DNA of 8,127 nt from a virus (IMGVR_UViG_2713896799_000002:1-8127), one strand, 5' to 3'; positions 1 to 8,127 are shown, counted from the first letter of the stretch. The notes: generated from the sequence alone by a model not told the origin. Numbers and translations: made by a program.

Positions 1-1779
1 GAACACTCCAGAACGCGTCTTTCCAGAACGTTTCGTCACAGCCCGGAGGTCAGTAAGCGTCTCAGTCCTTCCCGTAATGACAACAACGTCCACGATAAAA
101 TGTTTCTTGACGGCTCCTTCCTGAAGATTGGCTGGCCGTCGATCACCGTATTTTCCTCCTCGGATTACCGTCGTGTGGCGCTGACGGATTATGACCGTTT
201 CCCTGAAAACGTGGACGGGGAAGGGGATGCCTTCACCCTGGCATCAAAGCGTACCACCACCTTTATGTCTTCCGGGATGACCCTGGTCGAGAGTTCACCC
301 GGGCGGGATATCACTGACACCAAATGGCGATGTGGCGGCACACATGAGGCACCCCAACAACGGGATCCTGTCCCTGTATAACCGGGAGACCGCCGTCGGT
401 GGTACTGGCCGTGTCCGCACTGTGGGGAATATTTTCAGCCGGTGATGGATAACATGACCGGTTACCGGAATAACCCTGATTTTGTGGCTGCCGGGCAGGC
501 GCCCCGCCTGATGTGTCCGCACTGCTGCGGCCTGATTGCTCCGGAACAGAAACGTGAACTGAATAACCAGGGGATCTGGCTTCGTGAAGGTGAACGGGCG
601 GCGGCGGACGGCAGTATCACCGGAACGCCACGAAATTCCCGGATTGCGTCATTCTGGATGGAGGGGCCGGCTGCGGCGTTTCAGACCTGGGAACAACTGA
701 TTTTTAAACTGCTGGCGGCAGAAGAAGAGTATGAGCGAACCGGCAGTGAAGAGACCCTGAAAGCGGTGGTGAACACCGATATCGGACGACCCTATCTGCC
801 CCGTTCAGCCACGGAACAGCGTAAAAGTGAACTGCTTGAACAGCGTGCCGAGCCGTTTCCCCGGCGATCTGTGCCGGATGGTGTGCGTTTTATTGAGGCA
901 ACGGTTGACGTACAGGGCGGTAAAAATCGCCGTTTTGTTGTGCAGATCACCGGATACGGAGAGCAGGGGGAACGCTGGATTGTTGATCGCTACAACATCC
1001 GGCATTCACTGCGCTGCAGTCCCAACGGTGAAAGTCTGCCGGTTGATCCGGCGGCATATCCGGAGGACTGGGATTTGTTGCTGACGGATGTGTTCCATAA
1101 AACATGGCCGCTGGCTTCTGATCCGGATGTGCGCATGCGTCTGATGGCCATGGCGGTGGATACGGGAGGGGAAGCCGGGGTGACAGATAACGCCTATCGT
1201 TTCTGGCGTCGTTGCCGGAGTGACGGACTGGGCAACAGGGTGTTTCTGTTCAAGGGGGATGGTCTTCGCCGTGACAGGCTGATTAACCGTACCTTCCCGG
1301 ATAATACCGGCAGAAGTGCCCGCCGTGCCAGAGCCAGTGGCGATGTCGCGCTGTGGCTGGTTCAGACGGATGCGTTTAAGGACCGTGTAAATAATGCCCT
1401 GTGGCGTGACACACCGGGGCCGAACTATATCCACTTTCCCGACTGGCTGGGGCGGTGGTTTTACGATGAGCTGACCTATGAAGAGCGCGGCAGTGACGGA
1501 AAATGGCGAAAACCGGGCAGGGGCGCTAACGAGGCGTTTGACCTGCTGGTTTATGCGGATGCGCTTGCCGTTCTGCATGGTTACGAAAAGATCCGCTGGC
1601 CCTCCGCACCGGACTGGGCACAGCGGGAAACGTGGCTCGTCTTCCCGCAGGAGCGTTCTGGTGAAACGGCATCCCCGGAACTGACGGCCGGGGCAGAAAA
1701 ACGCCGTCGCCGGAAGAAAAAACTGCGGACGGAGCGTGCGGAAGATAATCCATGGATAACATCAGGAGGCTGGTTGTGA
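1..1779 (+). CDS. Terminase large subunit (lambda gpA / GpA family); 5' end lies upstream of the window; reading frame interrupted by an in-frame TAA at 379-381
   Basis: Frame +1 is open from base 1 to 378 and again from 382 to the TGA at 1777-1779. The CPHCGE and CPHCCG motifs just downstream of the stop resemble the cysteine motif region of lambda gpA, and the gene sits directly upstream of W and portal. ORF track gives 100..381 and 442..1779 in the same frame. Confidence 0.8.
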
Positions 1780-1988
1780 GCACAGAAGAAGCCAGAGAAA
1801 TGATACAGCGGTACCGTGAAGCGGAAATGGCCGTACTGGAGGGGAAGTCTGTCACCTTCAACGGACAGCAACTGACGCTGGAAAGCCTTTCTCAGATCCG
1901 CGCCGGACGTCAGGAGTGGGAACGCAGGCTTGCCGCGATGGTGAGCCGCAGGCGGGGAAAACCGGGATTTAAACTGGCGAGGTTTTAA
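1776..1988 (+). CDS. W: Head completion / head-tail joining protein, gpW family
   Basis: About 70 aa with the C-terminal RRRGxxGF motif typical of lambda gpW. AGGAGG at 1764-1769 lies 6 nt before GTG 1776, and the GTG overlaps the terminase stop (GTGA). The track ORF starts at the in-frame ATG 1752, which is a less likely start. The stop TAA overlaps the portal ATG (TAATG). Confidence 0.8.
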   Translation: MSTEEAREMIQRYREAEMAVLEGKSVTFNGQQLTLESLSQIRAGRQEWERRLAAMVSRRRGKPGFKLARF

Positions 1989-3490
1989 TGGCAATTATTG
2001 ATGATGTGATAGGCGTGTTCTCTCCAGGCTGGAAAGCGGCCAGACTGCGTTCAAGGGCGTTAATCATGGCCTATGAGGCGGTGAAACCGACCCGGACACA
2101 TAAAGCCCGGCGTGAAAATCGATCTGCTGATCAACTCAGTAAATATGGTGCGGTTTCCCTGCGGGAGCAGGCCCGTTTTCTGGATATCAATCATGACCTG
2201 GTGATTGGTGTGTTTGACAAGCTTGAAGAGCGGGTGATTGGTGCCAGAGGAATTACTGTGGAGCCTCAGCCATTACGAAAAAACGGGGAAATGGCGGCAG
2301 AGCTGGCTGCGGATATCCGCCGGTTGTGGGCTGAATGGTCCGTGAGTCCGGATGTGACAGGGCAGTATACCCGTCCCGTGCTTGAGCGTTTACTGCTGCG
2401 GACCTGGCTGCGGGATGGTGAAGTGTTTGCGCAGATGGTCAGTGGTGCGGGAAACGGTCTGGAACGGACGGCGGGAGTGCCATTCTGGCTTGAAGCGATG
2501 GAGCCGGATTTTGTTCCCATGCACAGTGATGAATCCGCCGGGCTGAATCAGGGGGTTTTTCTTGATGAGTGGGGCAGACCGAAAAAATATCTGGTTTATA
2601 AAAATTATCCGGTCAGTGGTCGGCAGAGTGATACGAAAGAAATCGCCGCCGGAAAAATGATCCACCTGAAGTTCACTCGTCGTCTGCATCAGACGCGAGG
2701 CTCATCCATGTTATCGGGGGTGCTGATGCGGATCAGTGCCCTTAAGGAGTATGAGGATGCGGAACTGACAGCGGCGCGTATTGCTGCGGCGCTGGGACTG
2801 TATATCCGTAAAGGTGACGGACAGGACTATGAAGATCCGGGGATCAAAGAAACCGAGCGGGAAGTCCATATCACCCCGGGGATTATTTATGACGATTTGC
2901 GCAAGGGCGAGGATATCGGCATGGTCAAATCCGATCGTCCCAATCCCAACCTTGAAACTTTCCGCAACGGCCAGTTGCGTGCAGTGGCAGCTGGCAGTCG
3001 TCTGAGTTTTTCCAGTGCGGCGCGTAACTATAACGGCACCTACAGCGCCCAGCGGCAGGAGCTGGTCGAGTCCACGGATGGTTACCTGATCCTGCAGGAC
3101 TGTTTTATTGGTGCGGTAACCCGCCCGGTGTACCGGACATGGCTGAATATGGTGGTTGCGGCAGGTCTGCTGAAAATTCCGGCGGATGTGGAGATGAAGA
3201 CGCTATATAACGCGACGTATTCCGGTCCGGTGATGCCGTGGATCGACCCGGTTAAGGAGGCTGAAGCCTGGCGGATACAGATCCGGGGTGGTGCCGCGAC
3301 GGAATCCGACTGGATCCGCGCAGGCGGGCGCAACCCGGATGAGGTCAAACGTCGCCGTAAGGCTGAAACTGAGGAAAATCGCAGGCTGGGGCTGGTCTTT
3401 GATACTGACCCCGCTAACGACAAAGGAGGCAACAGTGCCGGAACTGAACAACAGCGTCAGCAGGCCACCGACAGCCAGCATGAAGAATAA
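1988..3490 (+). CDS. Phage portal protein
   Basis: Uninterrupted 500-aa ORF with the size and position expected for a portal (after terminase and W, before the protease) and an acidic C-terminal tail. Start is coupled to the W stop. Confidence 0.85.
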   Translation: MAIIDDVIGVFSPGWKAARLRSRALIMAYEAVKPTRTHKARRENRSADQLSKYGAVSLREQARFLDINHDLVIGVFDKLEERVIGARGITVEPQPLRKNGEMAAELAADIRRLWAEWSVSPDVTGQYTRPVLERLLLRTWLRDGEVFAQMVSGAGNGLERTAGVPFWLEAMEPDFVPMHSDESAGLNQGVFLDEWGRPKKYLVYKNYPVSGRQSDTKEIAAGKMIHLKFTRRLHQTRGSSMLSGVLMRISALKEYEDAELTAARIAAALGLYIRKGDGQDYEDPGIKETEREVHITPGIIYDDLRKGEDIGMVKSDRPNPNLETFRNGQLRAVAAGSRLSFSSAARNYNGTYSAQRQELVESTDGYLILQDCFIGAVTRPVYRTWLNMVVAAGLLKIPADVEMKTLYNATYSGPVMPWIDPVKEAEAWRIQIRGGAATESDWIRAGGRNPDEVKRRRKAETEENRRLGLVFDTDPANDKGGNSAGTEQQRQQATDSQHEE

Positions 3491-4499
3491 ATCCTGGTTC
3501 AGGATGCAGGCGGGTGGTCAGGGTGAGGCGGATATTTATATTTATGATGAGATTGGTTTCTGGGGCGTCACCGCGAAGCAGTTTGTCAGCGATATGAATG
3601 CCCTGGGTGATATCACCCACATTAATCTCCACATCAACTCACCGGGTGGCGATGTCTTTGAAGGCATCGCCATTTTTAATGCCCTGAAAAATCACGGTGC
3701 GGCCATTACCGTGTATGTGGATGGCGTTGCCGCCTCGATGGCATCCCTGATTGCGATGGCCGGTGACACGGTCATTATGCCGGAAAATGCCTTCATGATG
3801 ATCCATAAACCCTGGGGGATCAGCGGTGGTGATGCGGAGAAAATGCGCACTTATGCCGAACGTCTGGACAAACTTGAGTCGGTTATGGTGCCGGTATATG
3901 CGCAGAAAACCGGAAAAACCACCGATGAAATTGCCGCCATGCTGGCGGATGAGACCTGGATGTCCGGTGCCGAGTGTCTGGCACACGGATTTGCTGACCA
4001 GGTGACGCCAGCCGTTAAGGCAATGGCATGTATTCAGTCAAAACGTACAGAGGAATTTAAAAAGATGCCGGAATCCATCCGAAATATGATCACGCAGCCA
4101 CACAACAGTGCCCCGCGTGATACCACAGTGACAATCCCTGCACCGGCGGTAACAGAACCATCACCGGTACCGGCAGTGTCTGATGAGGCGACCATTCGCG
4201 CCCGCGTTATGGCTGAGCAGAAAGCCCGCATGTCAGGCATTAACGATCTGTTTGCCATGTTTGGCGGGCGCTATCAGGCGCTTCAGGCGCAGTGTGTGGC
4301 CGATCCTGACTGTTCGCTGGAAATGGCCCGCGAGCGCCTTCTGAATGAAATGGGCAAGGAGTCCTCGCCGACCAACAAAAACACACCGGCCCATATTTAT
4401 GCCGGAAACGGCAATTTTGTGGGAGACGGATCCGCCAGGCGATGCTGGCCCGTGCCGGATTTGAAAATGTCGAGAAGGATAATGTCTATAACGGGATGA
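3435..4499 (+). CDS. ClpP-like (S14) prohead protease with C-terminal scaffold-like region; probably the 5' part of a tripartite protease-scaffold-capsid gene split by a frameshift near 4428
   Basis: The N-terminal part (ADIYIYDEIGF...INSPGGDV...MASLIAMAGD) looks like a ClpP-family serine protease, followed by a Pro/Ala-rich then helical-looking region. AAGGAGG at 3424-3430 precedes GTG 3435; alternative starts are ATG 3480 (overlapping the portal stop) and the track's ATG 3288. The last ~20 aa before the stop at 4499 look like out-of-frame translation. Confidence 0.75.
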   Translation: MPELNNSVSRPPTASMKNKSWFRMQAGGQGEADIYIYDEIGFWGVTAKQFVSDMNALGDITHINLHINSPGGDVFEGIAIFNALKNHGAAITVYVDGVAASMASLIAMAGDTVIMPENAFMMIHKPWGISGGDAEKMRTYAERLDKLESVMVPVYAQKTGKTTDEIAAMLADETWMSGAECLAHGFADQVTPAVKAMACIQSKRTEEFKKMPESIRNMITQPHNSAPRDTTVTIPAPAVTEPSPVPAVSDEATIRARVMAEQKARMSGINDLFAMFGGRYQALQAQCVADPDCSLEMARERLLNEMGKESSPTNKNTPAHIYAGNGNFVGDGSARRCWPVPDLKMSRRIMSITG

Positions 4500-5458
4500 C
4501 CCTGCGTGAATGGGCTCGCATGTCACTGACCGAGCGTGGTATTGGGGTGGCCAGTTATAACCCCATGCAGATGGTCGGGCTGGCGCTGACGCACAGCACC
4601 TCTGATTTTGGCAATATTCTGCTGGATGTGTCGAACAAGGGGCTGATCCAGGGCTGGGAGGAATCAGAAGAAACCTTCCAGAAGTGGACCCGTAAGGGAC
4701 GCCTGTCAGACTTCAAAACAGCGTATCGCGTGGGGATGGGCGGTTTTGGTTCTCTGCGTCAGGTTCGTGAAGGGGCGGAGTATAAATACATCACCACCTC
4801 AGATCGCAAGGAGACCATTGCTCTGGCCACTTACGGGGAGATTTTCTCCATCACCCGCCAGGCCATTATCAATGATGACCTGAATATGCTGGTTGACGTG
4901 CCGATGAAGATGGGGCGTGCGGCGAAGGCAACGATTGGTGACCTGGTCTACAAGGTGCTGACGGATAACCCGAAACTGTCAGACGGTAAGGCGCTGTTCC
5001 ATGCCGATCACAAAAATATTGCCACCGGCGGGATCTCCGTTTCCGGACTGGATGCGGCCCGTCAGATGATGCGCCTGCAGAAAGAAGGCGATCGCGCCCT
5101 GAATATCCGCCCGGCCTTCATGCTGGTCCCTGTGGCACTGGAGACGGTGGCGAACCAGACCATCAAATCGGCCAGTGTGAAAGGGGCGGATGCAAACGCC
5201 GGTGTCATTAACCCTATCCAGAACTTTGCTGAGGTGATTGCGGAAGCGCGTCTTGATGCGGCAGATCCGAAAACCTGGTATCTTGCGGCGGCACAGGGCA
5301 CCGACACCATTGAAGTGGCCTGGCTCGATGGTGTGGACACGCCATACATTGATCAGCAGGAAGGTTTCACCACTGACGGCATTGCCACAAAAATCCGTAT
5401 TGATGCCGGAGTGGCACCACTTGACTGGCGCGGGCTGGTGCGTTCGTCGGTGGCCTGA
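4442..5458 (+). CDS. Major capsid protein segment; likely the 3' part of the protease-scaffold-capsid gene
   Basis: 338-aa ORF ending in a tandem stop TGATAA at 5456-5461 and followed by a terminator. Its frame stays open upstream of ATG 4442 back into the end of the protease ORF (reads ...GRRIRQAMLARAGFENVEK), and ATG 4442 has no good RBS. Confidence 0.75.
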   Translation: MLARAGFENVEKDNVYNGMTLREWARMSLTERGIGVASYNPMQMVGLALTHSTSDFGNILLDVSNKGLIQGWEESEETFQKWTRKGRLSDFKTAYRVGMGGFGSLRQVREGAEYKYITTSDRKETIALATYGEIFSITRQAIINDDLNMLVDVPMKMGRAAKATIGDLVYKVLTDNPKLSDGKALFHADHKNIATGGISVSGLDAARQMMRLQKEGDRALNIRPAFMLVPVALETVANQTIKSASVKGADANAGVINPIQNFAEVIAEARLDAADPKTWYLAAAQGTDTIEVAWLDGVDTPYIDQQEGFTTDGIATKIRIDAGVAPLDWRGLVRSSVA

Positions 5459-5480
5459 TAACCGCGTTATCACAATCACT

Positions 5481-5499
5481 GCCCGAAAGGGCTTTTTTT
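5481..5499 (+). terminator. Putative Rho-independent terminator or attenuator after the capsid gene
   Basis: GCCC-GAAA-GGGC hairpin (4-bp GC stem, GNRA-type loop) followed directly by a run of seven T, 23 nt after the capsid stop. Confidence 0.5.
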
Positions 5500-5510
5500 A
5501 TGCCTGAAAA

Positions 5511-5528
5511 ACAGCCCCCGGGGGCTGT
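5511..5528 (+). repeat. Perfect 18-bp palindrome ACAGCCCCCGGGGGCTGT between the terminator and the next gene's RBS
   Basis: Read directly from the sequence. It contains a CCCGGG core and sits about 3 nt upstream of GGAGAG (5531-5536) and ATG 5545. Confidence 0.45.
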
Positions 5529-5544
5529 CCGGAGAGACAGCATT

Positions 5545-5870
5545 ATGGCGAAAAATTTTGTACAGGACGGTACCACCATTGAACTGGTGAATGCCGGAGA
5601 TCAGACCATTCTGAGCGGTGCCGCGGTGGTGGTCGGCAGTATGGTGGCAGTGGCCATTACCGATATTCCTGCCGGGGATGTCGGTGACGGTTTTGCCGAA
5701 GGCGTGTTCCTGCTGCCCAAACAGTCTGCTGACGATATTCAGGCCGGTGCGGTGGTTTATCTGAAGGACGGGGCTGTGCAGCTGCTGCAGACGGTGCGGT
5801 GGCAGCGGGAGTAGCCTGGGAAAATGCTCCAGCAAACACCGCCACTGTGGCGGTAAAAATCAATGTCTGA
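5545..5870 (+). CDS. DUF2190-like small head-associated protein (putative decoration/cement-type), frameshifted near 5770-5790
   Basis: Begins MAKNFVQDGTTIELVNAG, with GGAGAG 8 nt upstream of ATG 5545. The frame +1 part stops at TAG 5812-5814, but the -1 frame from about 5775 to TGA 5868-5870 reads AAAADGAVAAGVAWENAPANTATVAVKINV, a plausible C-terminus. The track's ATG 5500 abuts the terminator T-run and lacks an RBS. Confidence 0.55.
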
Positions 5871-6144
5871 TCTGTTTGCGCGAATGTGTTGCCGGATGGA
5901 CGTGGCGACCGTTCGGATGATGGGCAAACAGGCGGAGATTAACGGCGTCGTGTATGACGTGATGCCGGAGGAAGAGTCTGCGGATATGGGGGCGCTTTCC
6001 GGCAGTCAGTTGTCACTGGTGGTGTTTTCAGCGCAGTACCGGCCGGCCCGCGATGATGTGGTTGTGTTTGACGGTCGCTCACTGGTGGTGACCCGTTATG
6101 ACACGTACAACGGTAAACCCCGGATTTTTGTCGAGCAGGAATAA
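5863..6144 (+). CDS. Head-tail attachment protein, lambda gpFII-like
   Basis: Intact 93-aa ORF. Its N-terminal half (LFARMCCRMDVATVRMMGKQAEI) parallels lambda FII as I recall it (LFDAAIARADETIRGYMGTSATI), and it sits immediately before Z. ATG overlaps the upstream stop (ATGTCTGA). Confidence 0.55.
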   Translation: MSDLFARMCCRMDVATVRMMGKQAEINGVVYDVMPEEESADMGALSGSQLSLVVFSAQYRPARDDVVVFDGRSLVVTRYDTYNGKPRIFVEQE

Positions 6145-6146
6145 GT

Positions 6147-6738
6147 ATGGCGATAAAAGGAATGGCTCAGGCCATGCGAAATCTTGATGCGCTGGATCGC
6201 CGTGCCGTTCCCGTGCGGCAGCCACCACGCTTAATCGTGTGGCGGAGTCCATCATCGCGAAAACGGCCTCTTCGGTTGCCCGTGAACTGGCGGTTCCACG
6301 CCGTCTCATCCGTGCCCGTATCCGCCTGCAACGGGCACGGGCCGACAAGGTCAACGCAAAGGTTTACATCACACCGGTAATCTGCCCGTCATAAACTGGG
6401 GAGGCCCGCGTGAGGCTTTCCCGCAGAAAGCGGCGAAAGAAAGGTGAGCGTTCGGTCACGAAAGGCGGTGGCAGTGTGCTGATTGTCGGGAAACGGCGGA
6501 TCCCGAATGCTTTTATTACCCGGCTGGAAAATGGCCGGTGGCATGTGATGCAGCGTATGCCGTGGGCATCGTCGTCCACCGGTGTTGACCGTAAAGGCAG
6601 GCCGAACCGTCTGCCGATTGAAGTGGTGACACCGACGACCGCTGGCGGAACCTTTGAGCGCGAACGTGACCGGATGTACCGGGAGAATTACCGGAACAGC
6701 CATGGCGTATCAGTTACGTTATGAAACGAAAACTGTGA
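6147..6738 (+). pseudogene. Z: Minor tail protein Z (lambda gpZ homologue), broken by at least four frameshifts
   Basis: Lambda Z-like sequence can be followed across three frames: MAIKGMAQAMRNLDALDRRAVP (frame 0), AAATTLNRVAESIIAKTASSVARELAVPRRLIRARIRLQRARADKVNAKVYITP (frame 2), GNLPVI (frame 1), EARVRLSRRKRRKKGERSVTKGGGSVLIVGKRRIPNAFITRLENGRWHVMQR... (frame 2), ...LPEQPWRISYVMKRKL (frame 1, stop TGA 6736-6738). Track ORFs 6147..6380 and 6410..6724 are fragments of it. Confidence 0.8.
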
Positions 6739-7133
6739 GGAGGTTGAAACACCGGGAAATACGGGCGGCCGTTCTGTCAGCCCTGAAGAAAATATTTTGA
6801 GCGGGGGACATGGTTTGACGGGCGACCTGCTTTTATTGACGAGCTGGAACTTCCGGCAGTGGCGGTCTACCTGACGGATGCGTCGGCAGCTGACGAGTTC
6901 GTTGATGAGGACCTGGGGGGTACTGCATATCGAGGTTTTCTCAGGCGAAAGAAACGGATTCGGCACTGGATATGTGGATGGAAGAGAAAATCCTTCCTGC
7001 GCTGGAGGCGGTTCCCGGCCTCAGTGCGTTACTGCTGAAGATGAATCTTCAGGGGTATGACTACCGCCGGGATGATGAGTTTATGATGTGGGGATCGGCA
7101 GATCTCCTGTGGAAAATTACCTACGAGATGTGA
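6735..7133 (+). pseudogene. U: Tail terminator protein U (lambda gpU homologue), broken by at least three frameshifts
   Basis: GTG 6735 overlaps the Z stop (GTGA). Lambda U-like segments: RRLKHREIRAAVLSALKKIF (frame 0, stop 6798-6800), WFDGRPAFIDELELPAVAVYLTDASAADEFVDEDLGG (frame 1), VLHIEVF (frame 2), then ...[55 protein letters not shown] ending at TGA 7131-7133 (frame 0). Track ORF 6878..7060 is a fragment. Confidence 0.75.
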
Positions 7134-7140
7134 GGACGAT

Positions 7141-7889
7141 ATGGCAATACCAAATCCTCTTGAGCCGGTGAAAGGTTCCGGCACCACACTATGGGTGTAC
7201 ACCGGCACTGGTGATGCTTATGCCAACCCGTTGTCAGACGATGAGTGGACGCGCCTGGCAAAAATAAAGGATCTGACCCCCGGCGAGATGACGGCAGAAT
7301 CCTACGATGATAACTATCTGGATGATGAGGATGCTGACTGGGTATCCACCGGGCAGGGGCAGAAATCTGCCGGTGACACCAGTTTTACGCTGGCCTGGAA
7401 GCCGGGCGAGAAAGGGCAGCGCGATTTGATCGCCTGGTTTGACAGCAGTGAGACCCGGGCCTACAAAATCCGTTTCCCGAACGGCACGGTGGATGTGTTC
7501 CGTGGCTGGGTGAGCGCCATTGGTAAAGCGGTGACCGCCAGAGAGGTGATCACCCGTACCGTGAAGATCACCAATATCGGCCGTCCGTCGCTGGCGGAAG
7601 ATCAGGGGACATCACGCCGGTCACCGGTATTACCGTGACGCCATCAACGGGCAATGTGGCAAAAGGTCAGAATATCACCCTGACTGTGGCCGTTCAGCCG
7701 GAAGGGGCGACGGATAAAACCTTCCGCGCCACGTCAGCGAATCAGAATTTCGCCACCATTACCGTGAAAGGGAACACGATCACGGTGAAAGGTGTTGCGG
7801 CCGGTAAAGCGCAGATCCCTGTGGTGACCGGAAATGGTCAGTTTGCGGCAGTGGCAGAAATTACCGTCACGGATGGTGCTGCGGGTTAA
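7141..7889 (+). CDS. V: Major tail tube protein V (lambda gpV homologue), with a frameshift at the GGGG run 7605-7608 separating the C-terminal Ig-like domain
   Basis: Residues 1-160 are highly similar to lambda V as recalled (PNPxxPVKGxGTTLWVY...[18 protein letters not shown]). GAGG sits 5 nt before ATG 7141. Track ORF 7635..7889 (...[10 protein letters not shown]...[23 protein letters not shown]) corresponds to the lambda V C-terminal Ig-like domain in the -1 frame. Confidence 0.85.
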
Positions 7890-7909
7890 GCTGAGGGAGT
7901 GATAAAAGC

Positions 7910-8127
7910 ATGTTTCTGAAAACAGAACAATTTGAATATAACGGCGTGTCCGTCACCCTTTCCGAACTGTCTGCGCTGCAGCGTATTGAGCATCTTGCCC
8001 CTCCTGAAACGGCGGGCAGAAGAGGCTGAAGCCAGCGGCAACCTGCAGGTGAGCGTGGAAGACCTTGTCAGAACCGGGGCGTTTCTGGTGGCGATGTCCC
8101 TGTGGCATAACCATCCACAGAAAACGC
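7910..8127 (+). CDS. G: Tail assembly chaperone G (lambda gpG homologue), 3' end beyond the window; frameshift at the CCCC run 7998-8001
   Basis: GAGGGAG at 7893-7899 precedes ATG 7910. MFLKTEQFEYNGVSVTLSELSALQRIEHLA (frame 2, stop 8027-8029) then LLKRRAEEAEASGNLQVSVEDLVRTGAFLVAMSLWHNHPQKT (frame 0, open to the window end) is near-collinear with lambda G as recalled. Confidence 0.75.

Follow-up and report, generated by a model that had tools for sequence, protein, structure and literature searches.

Frame disruptions in a prophage contig of Escherichia coli IH57218 as probable missing-base consensus errors

The window analysed here is the entire contig LFZJ01000007.1 (8,127 bp) from the genome assembly of E. 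coli O2:H27 strain IH57218. We conclude that the frame disruptions in its phage genes are very probably consensus errors in which bases are missing, and not mutations or gene decay. We favour an artefact because the contig comes from a PacBio RS assembly without described polishing, because its private indels outnumber its private substitutions, the opposite of what 26 natural relatives have in the same module, because the lesions are unique to LFZJ01000007.1 in the collections searched, and because the ORFs are perfectly restored by reverting the indels. Moreover, the artefact is not purely a homopolymer effect.

Results

The genes of the window are all on the + strand, as are the lesions within them. 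Z, U, V, G and the terminase and protease-capsid genes were identified by full-length profile matches above curated cut-offs, using the repaired proteins and, for the terminase, protease and capsid, the fragments; indels were called in alignments to 18-28 intact relatives. The gene for the gpA-type terminase large subunit, terL (1-1779; Pfam GpA_ATPase at 1-378 and GpA_nuclease at 445-1779), is truncated at its 5' end by the contig start and contains three 1-nt deletions (net -3), i.e. in a C-run at 352-355, which is C5 in all relatives and C4 in the window, and in two G-runs at 362-364 and 384-386, both shortened from G4 to G3; the run at 384-386 is the terminase site given in the first-pass annotation. 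The TAA stop codon at 379-381, which closes an ORF at 1-381, is in frame solely through the two upstream deletions, and the frame is recovered after 386. Compared to the L001 allele, terL has 2 mismatches over 1776 nt and 3 gaps.

The following DUF6148-type small gene (1776-1988; gap-free with 0-1 mismatch) and the portal gene (1988-3490) are intact, and the exact 500-aa portal sequence is present in many intact prophages (223 blocks of the searched collection). The gene at 3480-5458 encodes a fusion of a ClpP-like prohead protease and the major capsid protein (CLP_protease and Phage_capsid_4 matches; 659 aa after repair) and is split by a 1-nt deletion (G3 to G2) at 4428-4429. This site, initially described as a protease/capsid junction, is thus internal to one fusion gene and does not separate two genes. 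The DUF2190/Phage_cement_2 head decoration gene (5545-5870; 108 aa after repair) has a 1-nt deletion at 5783-5784 (GG to G), while the subsequent Gifsy-2 family (PF13856) gene (5863-6144) is intact and its exact product was found on LFZJ01000007.1 alone, by which the source of the window was recognised.

Tail gene Z (6147-6738; 208 aa after repair; Minor_tail_Z 1-190/190, E = 1e-53) has lost 35 nt altogether in ~10-13 deletion events. In its 5' part, these are at 6211-6213 (C4 to C3), 6371 (AA to A) and 6393-6403 (two of 1 nt), and in its 3' part after 6605 (-6), 6628 (-3), 6636 (-5), 6648 (-1), 6685 (-1), 6699 (-10) and 6717 (-5). In the tail terminator gene U (6744-7133; 132 aa after repair; Phage_tail_U 1-130/130), a 4-nt deletion at 6744 takes part of the ATG, further losses are at 6787 and 6796, and seven single bases are missing at scattered positions in 6910-6945; U differs from the intact L004 and L014 alleles by 1-4 mismatches only. 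The major tail tube gene V (7141-7889; 249 aa after repair; Phage_TTP_12 with a C-terminal Big_2 domain) has a 1-nt deletion (G5 to G4) at 7605-7608. Finally, the gene for the tail assembly chaperone G (7910-8127; Phage_TAC_2) is truncated at its 3' end by the contig end and has a C4 run at 7998-8001.

In total, comparison of the window with the relatives gives 24 indel events with affine gaps, or up to ~34 with linear gaps, and ~55 bases have been lost. At least 23 events are deletions versus 1 insertion (P = 1.5e-6 against 1:1), which is the change from C3 to C4 at 7998-8001 in G. Fourteen events involve a single base and ten involve 2-10 nt (e.g. -6, -5, -10, -5 and -4). The first-pass annotation, made from the sequence alone, had listed 12 frame disruptions and put their number at "at least 12". 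All 12 sites have a real alignment gap within ~10 nt when compared to intact relatives, but the true count is 24 or up to ~34, depending on the gap model; the sites overlooked include 353, 361, 6605, 6628, 6636, 6648, 6699, 6717, 6744 and 6787. Similarly, the disruptions had been described as single-base, which is incorrect for 10 of the 24, and as both contractions and expansions; one expansion does occur, but the implied balance is misleading given 23 deletions.

The disruptions had also been placed nearly all at homopolymer runs, which is incorrect. Single-base events are indeed concentrated there, with 9-10 of the 14 in runs of >=3 (background 17%; P = 1e-4), but this does not apply to the multi-base events, none of which (0/10) lies in such a run, so that runs of >=3 account for only ~10 of the 24. 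The multi-base deletions are flanked by microhomology of 0-3 nt, too short to be informative. Deletions fall in patches that are variable among paralogs in 44% of cases against a background of 25% (P = 0.005 by column and 0.17 by event), an overlap that is to be read with the tendency of aligners to favour gaps at mismatching columns.

The only non-coding event, C6 to C5 relative to the L001-type allele, lies at 5515-5519 in an intergenic palindrome (CAGCCCCC/GGGGGCTG) for which a hairpin was seen. In the inspected alignments, the lengths of coding runs agree among the relatives and only this intergenic run varies by allele type. These data bear on regulated or programmed frame changes, i.e. 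phase-variable tracts or ribosomal frameshifting. Lambda-like tail modules do have one programmed -1 frameshift (G/GT), which lends such a reading some plausibility; the affected runs, however, are just 2-6 nt long, many events lie outside runs, and all 26 natural relatives (CP022407.1 loci excluded) keep the genes in a single frame, by which this reading is effectively refuted, and we consider its probability negligible. With respect to the individual candidates, phase-variable tracts were rejected on runs of 2-6 nt in the intact alleles and on the window alone deviating at each indel site, and programmed ribosomal frameshifting on the single frame of each of terL, capsid, DUF2190, Z, U and V in the relatives and on the G/GT heptamer GGGAAAG, which does not occur on the window's + strand. 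A real G/GT site would fall past the window end.

As first counted, the private differences of the window comprised 23-24 indels versus 9-10 substitutions, and only 2 private substitutions (502 and 6806) survived re-alignment. By the identical count, the 26 relatives (the two CP022407.1 loci left out) have 363 substitutions versus 1 in-frame indel (Fisher P = 2e-28 against the window). Thus, the private differences of the window are overwhelmingly indels. Reverting the indels alone made terL, the 659-aa fusion, DUF2190, Z, U and V all full length, and after this reversion neither nonsense codons nor IS elements nor large deletions were found in the window, in line with the initial impression of almost no nonsense substitutions. 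Moreover, where substitutions do distinguish the window from its relatives, most are synonymous changes at third codon positions; therefore, the underlying allele is under purifying selection.

In pseudogene decay, substitutions are expected to arise at least as fast as indels. Genuine pseudogenisation, in which the IH57218 prophage would be decaying by real small deletions under the bacterial deletional bias, is difficult to reconcile with at most 2 credible private substitutions versus at least 24 indels where relatives have 363 to 1, with the lack of relaxed-selection substitutions, nonsense codons, IS elements and large deletions in the window, and with three deletions within 30 nt of an otherwise identical terL. 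In its favour, a bias towards deletions of varying size (1-10 nt) is reminiscent of how pseudogenes decay in bacteria, and 5 of the 17 prophage regions of IH57218 were scored incomplete in the strain's genome paper. Also, a frameshift in estIa of the sister strain IH53473, assembled by the same pipeline, was Sanger-checked by the authors and is real; therefore, frameshifts in these assemblies are not all errors. Altogether, we regard pseudogenisation as highly unlikely.

The events are strongly clustered, with 17 of the 24 inside 6209-6942 (Z and U), i.e. 9% of the window (P = 3e-13), and none in the ~4 kb at 387-4427 in the alignment to relatives. Compared to the intact L004 allele, 6625-7000 lacks 38 nt in 14-18 deletion runs but has a single mismatch and 0 insertions, while 7001-8120 has 0 mismatches. 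In the dense Z/U patch, ~10-13% of the bases are gone with 0 insertions and at most 1 substitution, and when gaps are scored linearly, much of the cluster breaks up into dispersed losses of one base. As judged from these alignments, the patch is what would be expected of a consensus that was poorly corrected and biased towards deletions, and not of homopolymer slippage. Such strong clustering and losses as long as 10 nt differ from textbook homopolymer error and count against an artefact; also, with ~4 kb free of indels in the same contig, an error model would have to assume very uneven local support.

Isolated 1-nt run events and clustered multi-base losses do look like two classes, and it could be argued that the former are sequencing errors and that the dense cluster at 6200-6950 is real local damage. 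This mixture is nevertheless very unlikely, as the cluster differs from an intact allele by 1 mismatch, 14-18 deletions and 0 insertions, and linear gaps turn it largely into single-base losses, i.e. the same error at higher density. To our knowledge, no natural process in E. coli removes ~10% of the bases over 350 nt without substitutions. Likewise, we consider it extremely unlikely that IH57218 truly carries the copy as deposited, with a local burst of at least two dozen small deletions essentially without substitutions; if it did, ~700 bp of prophage DNA would have been subject to a novel process of mutation or editing that acts by deletion only.

Comparison with sister genomes, as proposed in the first-pass annotation, revealed no shared lesion in any collection searched. 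Four lesion-specific products, looked up exactly among 153 billion gene positions, were absent or present on LFZJ01000007.1 only, and the deletion junctions (23/24-mers) were absent from GTDB representative genomes, IMG/VR and JGI metagenomes. Thus, none of the independent assemblies searched reproduces the lesions, and the lack of any lesion in common with a sister genome argues further against inherited decay, the compared genomes being other strains without the exact allele. Among 5,426 complete genomes of E. coli, the best match to the window had 97% identity, and look-ups of the portal and of a 78-aa protein for another IH57218 copy gave matches in other strains only.

The region 5520-6630 (DUF2190 to Z) has at most 93% identity to any of the 5,426 complete genomes and ~96% to the L004 type, and is probably a natural allele that is elsewhere unsampled. 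In a copying model, the window needs 43 panel segments, ~37 of them within 5520-6630. A chimera, in which the consensus would mix two prophage paralogs of the same cell, is unsupported as an explanation: most switches correspond to derived alleles of the clonal L004 group and, among sites polarised with outgroup alleles, 35 were B+O versus 5 B-exclusive. Because L004-derived alleles are found at most switches, the pattern reflects ordinary phylogeny, the window representing a sister allele that has not been sampled.

According to the strain's genome paper, IH57218 was sequenced on a PacBio RS with P4/C2 continuous long reads and assembled in 2015 using HGAP pre-assembly, PacBioToCA and Celera Assembler (CA 7.0), giving 17 contigs with 17 prophage regions and one misassembly; the PacBio reads are in the SRA under PRJNA269579. 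The platform described is indel-prone, and no polishing of the consensus, with short reads or otherwise, is mentioned; the paper does not contain the words Quiver, polish or Illumina, although their absence does not prove that this step was omitted. Residual errors in long-read assemblies are chiefly short indels that pseudogenise genes (the Kastor paper, PMC12007338), and Watson & Warr 2019, as cited there, is the source for indel-dominated consensus errors that fragment genes in unpolished long-read assemblies. The contig size of 8.1 kb is about one read length, and the head/tail module is usually multi-copy in E. coli, with a median of 2 matching places per genome.

Discussion

The initial proposal of homopolymer-length sequencing errors is borne out in part: a technical origin is strongly, if indirectly, supported, while a homopolymer mechanism covers only ~10 of at least 24 events. 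A plausible scenario is that a single corrected read, or very few of them, gave rise to LFZJ01000007.1, and that correction voted out random insertion errors while missing bases persisted. This could have left isolated one-base contractions in G, C and A runs over most of the contig and, at ~6200-6950, a poorly corrected patch in which ~1 base in 10 is absent. The true sequence beneath the errors would then be an ordinary intact lambdoid prophage module.

The finding is ordinary, i.e. it is a data-quality warning and neither new biology nor a real feature. LFZJ01000007.1 is in GenBank within the genome of a pathogen. On the window, naive ORF calling yields ~ten spurious small proteins and automated annotation a series of false pseudogenes, and including the contig would distort the number of pseudogenes, the "intactness" scores of prophages and the gene clusters of pangenomes. 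Counting private indels versus private substitutions, with the relatives counted as a control, is a cheap test that does not require reads, and it also flagged CP022407.1 as a second suspect record.

The gene order and families of the window are shared with a prophage of E. coli 08-00022 (CP013662, 1349419-1358150), the Stx2a phage Stx2_14744 (LC567820) and the L004 group, i.e. the order gpA terminase, portal, ClpP-capsid fusion, cement protein, Gifsy-2 family, Z, U, V and G of Stx-converting and other lambdoid modules. The window has 99.7-100% identity to intact lambdoid modules over 400-4400 and 7001-8120; those modules are uninterrupted, whereas the window is broken. Cryptic E. coli prophages resemble the window in having broken morphogenesis genes and more deletions than insertions; however, real decay adds substitutions, nonsense codons, IS elements and large deletions, which the window lacks. 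Among the 28 sequences, E. coli O121:H19 16-9255 (CP022407.1, the copy at 1.81 Mb) is the sole other one with many private indels (12 versus 9 private substitutions), in which PGAP calls terL, capsid, V, G and the tape measure gene "frameshifted"; its 9 deletions and 3 insertions are nearly all of 1 nt and dispersed, whereas those of the window are clustered. More generally, the window is unlike typical residual error in its 350-nt patch with ~10% of bases lost, its losses of up to 10 nt and its near absence of insertions, but it shares with unpolished long-read assemblies private short indels, homopolymer-enriched single-base events, almost no substitutions, and spurious frameshifted pseudogenes that become full length on indel reversion.

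Gene content of the module

ORF listing and DNA similarity place the window in a lambdoid prophage, where it covers late genes for head and tail of the kind that Stx-converting phages carry. It encodes the terminase large subunit (terL, 1-1779, its 5' part cut at the window start), a small DUF6148 gene (1776-1988), the portal (1988-3490), a ClpP-like protease/major capsid fusion that is one single gene (3480-5458), a DUF2190/cement protein (5545-5870), a Gifsy-2-family gene (PF13856, 5863-6144) that is intact and has a product of 93 aa, the tail genes Z (6147-6738), U (6744-7133) and V (7141-7889), and the start only of G (7910 to the window end). Pfam confirmed every family, both from the fragments as they stand in the window and from repaired translations, i.e. 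with the indels reverted to the relatives' state; moreover, repaired Z, U and V matched their profiles end to end.

RefSeq calls the product of the PF13856 gene a 'DNA breaking-rejoining protein', and Pfam has 'ATP-binding sugar transporter'. Its place, with the head decoration gene on one side and tail gene Z on the other, suggests a role in head-tail joining, and both names therefore look like legacy misannotations. The capsid-DUF2190 spacer contains two hairpins, at 5482-5500 and 5511-5529. One, GCCCgaaaGGGC followed by T7, resembles a plus-strand terminator, but its stem is shorter than the scanner requires. The second hairpin, the palindrome CAGCCCCC/GGGGGCTG, has CCCCCC, CCCCACA or CCCCACT at its centre depending on allele class, and the scanner scored a terminator-like site there on the minus strand only.

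Across 5,426 complete E. coli genomes, identity to the stretch from DUF2190 to Z (5520-6630) does not exceed 93%, and to the type of the L004 group of intact relatives it is ~96%, while the flanking sequence matches known prophages at 99.7-100%. The idea of a chimeric consensus built from two paralogs was considered here, with ~37 apparent switches between two allele classes, and was dropped after polarising the sites with other alleles because most switches are sites at which the clonal L004 group has its own derived bases (at 35 sites the window shares its base with the B class and other alleles, versus 5 shared with the B class only). An unsampled sister allele would produce such switches, and 5520-6630 is thus best read as a genuine natural allele, rare among public sequences.

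Source and uniqueness of the contig

The window is the entire 8,127-bp contig LFZJ01000007.1 of assembly GCA_001264215.1. The source is the E. coli O2:H27 STEC/ETEC hybrid strain IH57218, which was sequenced on the PacBio RS platform (P4/C2 chemistry, continuous long reads) and assembled by HGAP pre-assembly, a second correction by PacBioToCA and Celera Assembler 7.0; Quiver, polishing and Illumina are nowhere mentioned in the text, and 17 contigs, 17 prophage regions and one misassembly were reported (PMC4551483). With one end within terL and the other within G, the 8-kb contig has a length that one corrected read can reach. E. coli genomes carry copies of the module at a median of two places and at up to 11.

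In exact look-ups, the 93-aa Gifsy-2-family product was found on LFZJ01000007.1 only, the terL fragment (445-1779) likewise had its sole occurrence there, and the lesion-specific products (the Z fragment, truncated V and truncated protease-capsid) were not on record. Two deletion-junction oligomers had no match in GTDB representative genomes, and the junction of the 10-nt deletion had none in IMG/VR or JGI metagenomes either. The best overall match among the 5,426 complete E. coli genomes was 97%, and all such matches were intact.

Indels relative to intact relatives

We aligned the window with three intact relatives and then with panels of 18 and 28 sequences. The first-pass annotation had listed 12 frame disruptions, and a true gap was found within a few bases of 12/12. 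With affine gap costs, however, there were 24 private events, of which 14 were single-base and 10 removed 2-10 nt, and with linear gap costs, which split several multi-base gaps into scattered single-base losses, up to ~34; the 12 listed sites, described as single-base, were thus too few and too uniform. The multi-base events are losses of 2 nt at 6395, 6 at 6605, 3 at 6628, 5 at 6636, 10 at 6699, 5 at 6717, 4 at 6744, 2 at 6910, 3 at 6920 and 2 at 6942. As the first-pass annotation had guessed (A and G runs at 6393-6400, net 2 nt), the loss at 6395 became two separate losses with linear gaps; similarly, 6900-6960 then contained seven single-base losses and no substitution.

In total, ~55 bases are lost. 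The proposal that both contractions and expansions occur is contradicted by a bias of 23 deletions to one insertion (P = 1.5e-6), the latter being C3 to C4 at 7998-8001. Among the 14 single-base events, nine or 10 affect runs of at least three identical bases (background 17%, P = 1e-4); the idea that nearly all events are at homopolymers fails because no multi-base event lies in such a run. The events are clustered, with 17/24 in 6209-6942, i.e. 9% of the window (P = 3e-13), and none in 387-4427.

In terL, three deletions (352-355, 362-364 and 384-386) sum to -3 and therefore return the frame, and the TAA at 379-381 is read inside the frame-shifted stretch. Moreover, the 4-nt loss at 6744 changes the U start region (6735-6750) from GGAGGTGGAATGAAA to GGAGGTTGAAA, removing the A of ATG and leaving TTG directly behind the U ribosome-binding site; errors of this type can destroy start codons besides shifting frames. 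The near-absence of nonsense substitutions was fully borne out, since reverting the indels alone reopened all genes at normal length. The first-pass observation thus stands in part: the record does contain the disruptions, but their number was underestimated and their character misdescribed.

Substitutions and the origin of the disruptions

Substitutions separating the window from its relatives are mostly synonymous and at third codon positions (synonymous:non-synonymous, portal 9:1, capsid 10:2, U 21:9, V 17:5), so the underlying allele evolved under purifying selection and is not noise. Against 18 relatives, nine window bases were absent from all others; seven of these abut gaps and were removed by re-alignment, leaving private substitutions at 502 and 6806 against at least 24 private indels. 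As a control, we ran the identical count on each member of the 28-sequence panel. Private indels were absent from 25/28 sequences, and the relatives, with the two loci of the suspect record CP022407.1 left out, totalled 363 private substitutions to a single private indel, a 3-nt deletion that keeps the frame, versus 10 and 23 in the window (Fisher's exact P = 2e-28; 2e-20 without the most divergent relative). Mutation-accumulation work in E. coli puts spontaneous indels at roughly one-tenth the frequency of base substitutions; even against 1:1, the 24:3 seen here has P = 2e-5.

Locally, relative to the intact L004 allele, 6625-7000 carries 14-18 deletion runs (38 nt) with a single mismatch and no insertion, and the following 1.1 kb carries one deletion, one insertion and no mismatch; 1-6149 has 14 mismatches and six single-base deletions. 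We are aware of no natural E. coli process that strips one-tenth of the bases from 350 nt without substitutions. Losses of up to 10 nt and extreme clustering are not typical of homopolymer error and count against an artefact; moreover, one frameshift from the same pipeline (estIa, sister strain IH53473) was Sanger-checked by the authors and is real, and the assemblies are therefore not uniformly unreliable (PMC4551483). Real decay, of the whole module or of the Z/U patch only, is nevertheless very improbable even with both forms taken together, because neither explains why substitutions are almost lacking, why no nonsense codon occurs or why terL has three deletions within 30 nt of sequence that is otherwise identical. 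Phase variation and programmed frameshifting are excluded: the affected runs are short and of equal length across the relatives inspected, each gene is in one frame in the relatives, and the lambda G/GT slippery heptamer is absent from the window's plus strand.

Errors in single-molecule reads are mainly insertions and deletions. In long-read assemblies, leftover errors are predominantly short indels, often in homopolymers, and pseudogenise genes (PMC12007338). Residual error of an apparently never-polished long-read consensus is the best explanation of the frame disruptions, which are almost certainly no biological feature. The isolated contractions in runs, found over most of the contig, are what such error would leave. 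The Z/U patch, by contrast, was probably a stretch with very few supporting reads, resolved by a rule discarding weakly supported bases; such a rule would remove random insertions, whereas missing bases would be kept and added. This patch is where co-resident prophage copies diverge most, and read recruitment during correction may have failed there, a possibility that drew no support from the chimera analysis. Deleted columns were somewhat enriched for those that vary between relatives (by column P = 0.005, by event 0.17), an excess that may also come from aligners favouring gaps at mismatching columns. The initial attribution to sequencing error holds in substance, its mechanism only in part.

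Related copies in other E. coli genomes

In the record of E. coli O121:H19 16-9255, labelled a complete genome, one copy (L022, CP022407.1 1810346-1830582 reversed) has 12 private indels (nine deletions and three insertions, nearly all of 1 nt) versus nine private substitutions, and carries the PGAP label 'frameshifted' on terL, the capsid fusion, V, G and the tape measure. These lesions, too, probably stem from consensus artefacts of this kind, in a prophage that is repeated. The second copy (L023) has one private indel only within the aligned module, and its tape-measure gene farther downstream is likewise fragmented in gene calls.

Strain 06-00048 has at least three paralogous copies, three of which are each the best match to a different part of the window, illustrating the mosaic and repetitive nature of the module. 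In one of its copies (L014 504-2627, CP015229.1 1683680-1685803), terL is annotated as a pseudogene with an internal stop; unlike the indels of the window, this lesion is of the substitution type, in a module that is otherwise intact.
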